NCBI RefSeq assembly: GCF_009931435.1
Contig: NZ_CP043414.1
Origin: Escherichia coli
Lineage (GTDB): Bacteria > Pseudomonadota > Gammaproteobacteria > Enterobacterales > Enterobacteriaceae
DNA length: 64,000 nucleotides
Reading direction: 5' to 3' (one strand)
Shown: positions 47,124 to 47,437 of the stretch, one piece after another
How positions within the stretch are numbered: the stretch's first letter is position 1
How the letters are laid out: each line of letters begins with the position of its first letter
Made by a program: the position numbers and the translations under genes
The notes under the pieces: model-generated
What the model saw: the letters and a program-made list of their open reading frames with translations, nothing else
What the model was told of the DNA's origin: nothing
Databases searched by the model: none

Positions 47124-47437
47124 GAATTAAAACCGTGAGGAAGTTCAAATTTCATGCGCATCATGCCACCGCCAAAAACATTGTCAATGGGTGAAAATAC
47201 GCGCATATCGCAGCTGAGGTATTATCGATTTATATTACTCATTCATAACGCTAATGCTGGAGAGACGATTAATCTCATCTGATTGTTTTTATTGATCTAA
47301 CACAAATTTCATACGCTTCGTTCAGTCGAAAAATTTCATGGTCACAGCAAACTCATATTTCCCGTCTATGCTTTCAGAGCAATGCATCGCGTCTGACCGA
47401 TTTCAGACGTACCGCTGACTCTCGAAAGGAGAAGAGG

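Follow-up and report, generated by a model that had tools for sequence, protein, structure and literature searches.

The ycaD-ycaC spacer of Escherichia coli is an ordinary, already mapped divergent promoter region with candidate conserved upstream elements

The genes ycaD and ycaC of Escherichia coli stand back to back, and neither has a known physiological function. The signals that control them should be readable in the DNA that separates their start codons, which raises the question of what sites this DNA holds and which of the two genes each site serves. We addressed this question in a 64,000-nucleotide stretch of E. coli DNA (the window). The part from 46900 to 47700, which contains the spacer, matches the chromosome of E. 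coli 2020CK-00188 at 100% identity; among 5426 complete E. coli genomes, 5424 have it. By RefSeq annotation the gene order is ycaK-ycaN-ycaM-ycaD / ycaC / dmsCBA. ycaD (45975–47123, minus strand) encodes an MFS transporter (RefSeq; Pfam MFS_1), and ycaC (47438–48064, plus strand) encodes an isochorismatase-family cysteine hydrolase (RefSeq; Pfam Isochorismatase). An earlier note on this DNA had described both genes as uncharacterised and as transcribed away from the spacer; the orientation is as described, and the first statement is right as far as physiological function goes but passes over the family assignments of both proteins.

The divergent control region between the two coding sequences runs from 47124 to 47437. 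It is 314 bp long in this strain; the 313 bp given previously is the length in K-12, which is shorter because of a 1-bp deletion at 47204. The spacer was also said to be A/T-rich and to contain no open reading frame of 60 codons or more. Both descriptions are accurate: its GC content is 40.8% compared to 50.7% for the whole window, and its longest open reading frames encode 42–45 amino acids. Divergent spacers of about 300 bp that are rich in A/T are normal in E. coli. What does not hold is the statement that the spacer lacks recognisable sites, since both core promoters can be read in it and coincide with published transcription start sites, and a BaeR-box-like sequence is found besides. The ycaD-ycaC spacer is thus an ordinary divergent promoter region that has already been mapped, with start sites, sigma factors and several regulators in the public record. 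The regulatory logic of ycaD and ycaC is located in it, as the earlier note had supposed, and very probably it acts as the shared control region of two back-to-back promoters that are regulated independently of each other.

In order to see which parts of the spacer are conserved, we looked for the same arrangement in other genomes. A scan for YcaC in species-representative genomes recovered the ycaD-ycaC arrangement in E. coli and two Citrobacter species only. Eight further loci were added through YcaD orthologues, five of them with ycaC (E. fergusonii, C. rodentium, C. freundii, Intestinirhabdus and Atlantibacter) and three without it (Salmonella, Leclercia and Enterobacter). The comparison was made on a 12-sequence enterobacterial alignment. 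This strain differs from K-12 at 10 positions across the spacer, all of them outside the conserved blocks A–D that are described below.

The promoter mapping that had been proposed for this region is already available from genome-wide data (Kim 2012, Cho 2014), with one start site for each gene. For ycaC, the supplement of Kim et al. 2012 (PMC3415461) has one start site only, whose leader is 59 nt long, and gives the 50 nt upstream of it. This site (K-12 NC_000913.2 944839; Kim 2012, Cho 2014) corresponds to position 47379 on the plus strand of the window, and the published 51-nt string upstream of the ycaC start has an exact match that occurs once in the window. The start lies 7 nt downstream of a sigma-S-type extended -10 element, TCTATGCTT (47365–47373, plus strand), with the hexamer TATGCT at 47367–47372 and a C at -13. 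All nine positions (9/9) of TCTATGCTT agree with KCTAYRCTT, which is reportedly the consensus of the sigma-S extended -10. The element is kept in 7 of the 9 taxa in the alignment that carry ycaC, and no good -35 was found upstream of the ycaC -10.

Published expression and binding data agree with this assignment. In Cho et al. 2014 (PMC3923258) the ycaC start site is represented by 3923 reads and is bound by sigma-70 and sigma-S (class 'DS'), and ycaC expression falls from a log2 value of ~9.1 to ~6.3 in an rpoS mutant. RpoS dependence of ycaC in O157:H7 EDL933 was published as 653-fold, ycaC is part of the Crl regulon, and it is induced by the YdeO-to-GadE cascade; the regulators listed for it are BaeR(+) and FNR(-). 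PycaC is in these respects like the sigma-S promoters of the osmY, dps and yciGFE class, with which it shares the extended -10, the C at -13, the poor -35, a start 7 nt downstream, dependence on rpoS and Crl, and occupancy by sigma-S. Nothing in it is unusual for this class, and sigma-70 occupancy is also recorded at many sigma-S promoters; what PycaC has in addition to sigma-S promoters generally is the reported BaeR input. We read it as a sigma-S-type promoter without a usable -35, which starts transcription at 47379 and provides ycaC with its 59-nt leader.

On the opposite strand, the promoter scan identified a -35 hexamer TTGACA for ycaD (47182–47187, minus strand; 6/6), followed after a 16-bp spacer by a TG-extended -10, TGGCATGAT (TG plus CATGAT; 47160–47167, minus strand). 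The resulting core, TTGACA-16-TG-CATGAT, has 10 of 12 hexamer matches in a consensus scan. The extended -10 is invariant in the 12-taxon alignment, as is the -35 save for the last two bases of its flank. Kim et al. 2012 (PMC3415461, supplement) give a single ycaD start site, a 30-nt leader and 50 nt of upstream sequence; the start (K-12 NC_000913.2 945064; Kim 2012, Cho 2014) falls at 47153 on the minus strand of the window, 7 nt downstream of the -10, and the published 51-nt string upstream of it likewise matches exactly and once in the window. According to Cho et al. 2014 (PMC3923258), the ycaD start is bound by sigma-70 and sigma-S (class 'DS'), and ycaD expression is unchanged in the rpoS mutant. 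Myers et al. 2013 (PMC3688515, Table S2) place a sigma-70 ChIP-seq peak at 945071 under the label ycaC/ycaD; it is 7 bp from the ycaD start site and stronger anaerobically. PycaD is a strong-looking sigma-70 promoter that starts at 47153 and gives an unstructured leader of 30 nt.

The simple promoter scan found one site in the spacer compared to 1.5 expected in shuffled sequences, and because this is not above the shuffles, our promoter calls rest on the published start sites and on conservation. Both start sites were mapped in K-12, and the promoter sequences are identical in this strain. The two core promoters face outwards and do not overlap, with 226 bp from one to the other. A Klebsiella start-site table had no entry for the ycaD of that organism.

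The 30-nt leader of ycaD (47124–47153, minus strand) has no Shine-Dalgarno sequence and is unstructured, with a fold z-score of +2.27, i.e. less structure than shuffled sequence. Its positions +4 to +23 are invariant in all 12 taxa, and CUUCCUCAC within the leader resembles the anti-Shine-Dalgarno sequence. Promoter and leader of ycaD together make up ~60 nt that are nearly identical across the 12 taxa, at an evolutionary distance at which synonymous sites are saturated. The features of the leader would fit Shine-Dalgarno-independent translation, and it might also contain an overlapping operator or an sRNA target. An invariant CRP-like sequence, CGTGAGGAAGTTCAAA, lies at +11.5 in the ycaD transcript; the match is 8/10 only, and it was set aside.

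Four blocks stand out in the alignment. Block A (47131–47190) covers the ycaD leader, -10 and -35, with a mean column identity of 0.85–0.99. Measured from the ycaD start, block B (TCGATT...TTACTnATTC; 47225–47244) lies at about -73 to -91; it consists of TCGATT at 47225–47230 and T.AT near 47239. Block C is TGTTTTTATT on the plus strand, or AATAAAAACA in the orientation of ycaD (47284–47293; about -131 to -140 from the ycaD start). Block D is GTCGAAAAATTTCAT on the plus strand (47325–47339); its position is -172 to -186 relative to the start of ycaD and -54 to -40 relative to that of ycaC, and 12 of its 15 columns are invariant. The distances to the ycaD -35 hardly change among the 12 taxa, being 42–43 bp for block B, 101–102 bp for block C and 145–146 bp for block D, and the sequence between the blocks is scrambled from one taxon to another. 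Save for these three islands with their fixed spacing, most of the 225 bp that separate the two start sites is free to vary. As a neutral reference, four-fold degenerate sites of ycaD were counted in the same 12 taxa, and only 4 of 127 (3%) are invariant; we conclude that selection acts on the islands.

All four blocks persist in the three genera that have no ycaC. Since they are kept without ycaC and without a neighbouring ycaN, the blocks most likely serve ycaD, and we infer that islands B–D are upstream elements of this gene. They could be binding sites for a conserved protein, or they could form a phased A-tract architecture; block D, at -54 to -40, may also be used by PycaC as an A-tract upstream element. 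The spacer is like ordinary divergent sigma-70 promoter regions of E. coli in having outward-facing core promoters and an A/T-rich middle with regulatory sites, and it differs from them in its unusually invariant ycaD promoter and leader and in the three exactly spaced distal islands. A full-text search of the literature with the block sequences as strings returned unrelated primer matches only. We propose, tentatively and with more doubt than confidence, that the near-invariant promoter and leader of ycaD and islands B–D make up an undescribed cis-regulatory module, which might be read by a conserved factor or might represent a fixed DNA architecture (phased A-tracts, looping), the 30-nt leader perhaps being also the target of a post-transcriptional regulator.

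A short repeat seemed suggestive at first. The 10-mer AAATTTCATG is present at 47147 and 47331, with a near-copy at 47304; these two occurrences are the only ones in the 64-kb window, and ATTTCAT is found three times in the spacer. In dinucleotide shuffles of the spacer, 5.5% contained some repeated 10-mer and 5.7% some 7-mer present three times, so that the AAATTTCATG / ATTTCAT repeat is marginal (p ~0.055). The middle copy is specific to E. coli, and the two conserved copies show no co-varying changes.

A search for known regulator motifs, which had also been suggested for this spacer, recovered the promoter elements and a BaeR-box-like match; other regulator matches were weak. The consensus scans covered CRP, FNR, ArcA, Fur, IHF, NsrR, Lrp, CpxR, PhoB, NarL, the GadE box and LysR/Nac; beyond BaeR, they gave weak matches only in the spacer. 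Among these, an Lrp-like match of 12/15 falls on block D; it is not claimed as a site. The YpdB (LytTR) motif, a GGCATTTCAT-N11 repeat, was considered for its shared ATTTCAT core and likewise discarded, as the spacing here is 27 bp and not 21, one copy is unconserved and the flanking bases differ.

The best BaeR-box-like sequence is CGTCTCTCCAGCATTAGC (47250–47267, minus strand), which agrees with the Nishino consensus at 12 of 18 positions (67%). Within it, TCTCCAGCA has 6 of the 7 specified bases of TCTNCANAA and an intact CTNCA core; the consensus strings TTTTTCTCCATDATTGGC and TCTNCANAA and the core CTNCA were confirmed in PMC3799227. ycaC is among four loci with reported BaeR sites, and the reported site is upstream of ycaC; the box at 47250–47267 is a candidate for it. 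Like the BaeR boxes of mdtA, spy and acrD it has the CTNCA core, and it differs from them in the modest quality of the match, in its position over 110 bp upstream of where ycaC transcription starts and in its orientation, which is that of ycaD. The box has two substitutions in K-12, is not conserved in Citrobacter and is specific to E. coli.

The 59-nt leader of ycaC contains a stem-loop in the minimum free energy fold, GCGUCUGA-CCGAUU-UCAGACGU (47389–47410, plus strand; +11 to +32), with a stem of 8 bp. Hairpins of the same kind, built from other arm sequences, are predicted in E. fergusonii, C. sedlakii, C. rodentium and Intestinirhabdus. In a six-sequence alignment 93.6% of the cells of the stem are paired, and compensatory changes are seen in 4 of the 8 pairs. 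In a test that comprises 6 sequences from ~5 lineages, the covariation score of the stem is 0.533; shuffles give 0.30, with none of 500 attaining the observed value, and sliding the partners gives no more than 0.317. The only difference from K-12 in the stem-loop is located in the loop. Closer to the coding region, a CU-rich tract (UCUC; 47420–47432, plus strand) can pair with the Shine-Dalgarno region of ycaC (GAGA of AAGGAGAAGAGG). The predicted hairpin is weak, with 4–5 bp, and is found in 6 taxa, in a register that differs between them; the CU tract might, and we say this with low confidence, pair weakly with the ycaC ribosome-binding site.

No match to the Rfam 15 covariance models was obtained in the region 46500–48100 on either strand at E up to 10, and a scan of the spacer for terminator-like sites found none. 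The leader hairpin is followed by UACCGCUGAC and not by U residues, unlike an intrinsic terminator or attenuator. Among known leaders, that of ycaC is similar to stabilising stem-loops of the ompA-leader type in having a covariation-supported stem-loop near the 5' end; it differs from them in that the stem begins at +11 and not at the very 5' end, and in having no Rfam match. It is also similar to small hairpins that sequester the ribosome-binding site, through the weak CU:GA pairing over this site. C. werkmanii and C. freundii have an insertion of ~70 nt between the promoter region and the ycaC ribosome-binding site; their leader is 134 nt long with a different predicted fold, and their -10 is ACTAAACTC instead of TCTATGCTT.

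The same leader palindrome could be read at the DNA level, as an operator for a dimeric repressor (47390–47409) that would form a roadblock downstream of the ycaC start. Its two 7-bp arms, set 6 bp apart, form a perfect inverted repeat from +12 to +31, and it includes a weak CRP-like match, TCTGACCGATTTCAGA. Its arms, however, vary among species while the pairing is kept (CGTCTGA, CACCTGA, CACCCGG and CACCCGA). The contacted bases of an operator would themselves be conserved, and conservation of the pairing only is expected of an RNA stem, which makes the operator improbable. An RNA element is favoured over it, since the arms change while the pairing is maintained, and we expect the stem-loop to act at the RNA level, through stabilisation of the mRNA or binding of a protein. 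Even less can be said for an unannotated small gene, for a small protein or a small RNA, hidden in the spacer, a reading that we find scarcely credible. Open reading frames of 42–45 aa do exist, blocks C and D are kept whether or not ycaC is there, and three minus-strand copies of ATGAAATTT can be read as 'MKF' starts. However, the 42-aa frame is frameshifted in K-12 and crosses unconserved sequence, and the ATG at the ycaD start site is upstream of or at +1 and so lies outside the mRNA; with this frameshift and no conservation, the small-ORF reading was rejected. The scrambled sequence between the blocks means that there is no continuous conserved transcript, the published maps (Kim 2012, Cho 2014) show a single start site in each direction, and the searches for Rfam families (E up to 10) and for terminator-like sites were empty.

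Two further alternatives assign the distal blocks to known regulators. Deletion of ycaN lowers ycaC and raises ycaD expression, and in that work YcaN sites are predicted at both genes, with reference to predictions for Nac. Blocks B–D might accordingly be taken for operators at which YcaN, the LysR regulator encoded nearby, or else Nac would bind, with YcaN activating ycaC and repressing ycaD. The opposite effects of the deletion and the published site predictions speak for this, as do an ATA-N9-TAT match at 47355–47369 that overlaps the ycaC -10, the position of block D at -54 to -40 of PycaC and the related 10-mer that overlaps the ycaD start site. Yet blocks B–D are equally conserved in the loci of Salmonella, Leclercia and Enterobacter, where neither ycaN nor ycaC lies beside ycaD, the ATA-N9-TAT match is specific to E. 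coli, and the shared 10-mer is only marginally non-random, with variants at its two sites that do not co-vary. The ChIP-exo binding-site tables contain no row for ycaD, and their single row for ycaC maps outside the spacer. We therefore regard operators of YcaN or Nac as unlikely, if the least unlikely of these alternatives. A response to oxygen is also documented: the aerobic/anaerobic expression ratio is 2.0 for ycaC and 0.39 for ycaD (Myers et al. 2013, PMC3688515), so that the two genes respond in opposite directions. Direct action of FNR (or ArcA) through the TTGAT-containing block C has been considered as its cause, as TTGATCTAACACAA (47292–47305) matches TTGAT-N4-ATCAA and transcriptomes show ycaC to be repressed by FNR and ycaD to be higher anaerobically. 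Direct FNR regulation calls for a site bound in vivo, and what is found instead is an 8/10 match that is polymorphic and has no ChIP peak. Its centre is at -81 from the ycaC start or at -145 from that of ycaD, and these are unusual positions for FNR sites. The half-site is TTGAA in K-12 (position 47296), which fits the absence of a ChIP peak there. ycaC is listed among the FNR-dependent operons lacking an FNR ChIP-seq peak (Myers 2013, PMC3688515, Table S10), neither ycaD nor ycaC is named in the FNR, H-NS and IHF peak tables of the same study, and the ArcA ChIP supplements name neither gene. Because ycaC changes in the fnr mutant without an FNR ChIP-seq peak, its repression by FNR is indirect, and direct control through block C is highly improbable. 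Taken together, the published data show that ycaD and ycaC are regulated, and in opposite senses, and are not expressed constitutively, the one outcome that the earlier note had named as contradicting a regulated spacer.

With these alternatives weighed, we return to the spacer as a divergent promoter region whose islands B–D would serve ycaD. As such it matters little in general: it belongs to the core genome of E. coli and is a divergent promoter region of the standard sort. Its analysis is a routine promoter dissection that reveals no new kind of element. Its value is practical. Both promoters are pinned to exact coordinates in the window and the FNR effect is found to be indirect; the three deeply conserved upstream islands and the covariation-supported leader stem-loop are flagged as cheap targets for reporter mutagenesis, and these elements may bear on the signal that controls YcaD and YcaC, a transporter and a hydrolase of unknown function.

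The ChIP-exo supplement of Gao et al. 2021 assigns a strong site (signal 47.8) of one of its candidate transcription factors to ycaC at K-12 944588–944606, outside the spacer. The genome version is unstated; these coordinates fall inside ycaC (about 47612–47630 of the window) by NC_000913.2 or inside dmsC by NC_000913.3.

ycaC is patchy in the Enterobacteriaceae. Salmonella has lost the gene and keeps a decayed remnant of the ycaC -10, CTCTATGGAT. The dmsC terminator directly abuts block D in Leclercia and Enterobacter, Klebsiella goes straight from dmsC to ycaD with no ycaC between them, and in E. fergusonii and Atlantibacter serS takes the place of dmsABC beside ycaC.

Crystal structures of YcaC have been published (PMC4519933). 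The E. coli protein is 87–92% identical in amino acids to its counterparts in Pseudomonas, Marinobacter, Vogesella, Geobacter, Rhizobiales and Acinetobacter. The third codon positions of the genes are only 35–50% identical, and GC3 tracks each host. High protein identity together with diverged third positions points to very strong purifying selection on YcaC and not to recent transfer. Outside the enterics ycaC usually follows a gene on the same strand. In 29 of these loci the preceding gene encodes a pirin (Pfam Pirin and Pirin_C), a second isochorismatase-family paralogue adjoins it in 16 loci (mostly directly upstream at 51–57 nt, downstream in a few), and a LysR regulator adjoins it in 8 loci, divergently upstream in 7 of them. 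This neighbourhood suggests a cluster of the electrophile or quinone-stress type. In E. coli, by contrast, ycaC is monocistronic and driven by sigma-S.

On the other side of the spacer, Cho et al. 2014 (PMC3923258) assign to ycaM five start sites that lie inside the ycaD coding region (K-12 945849–946161). ycaM may thus have several internal promoters within ycaD, in the part of the window from 45766 to 46400, which comprises the 3' part of ycaD and the gap between ycaD and ycaM.
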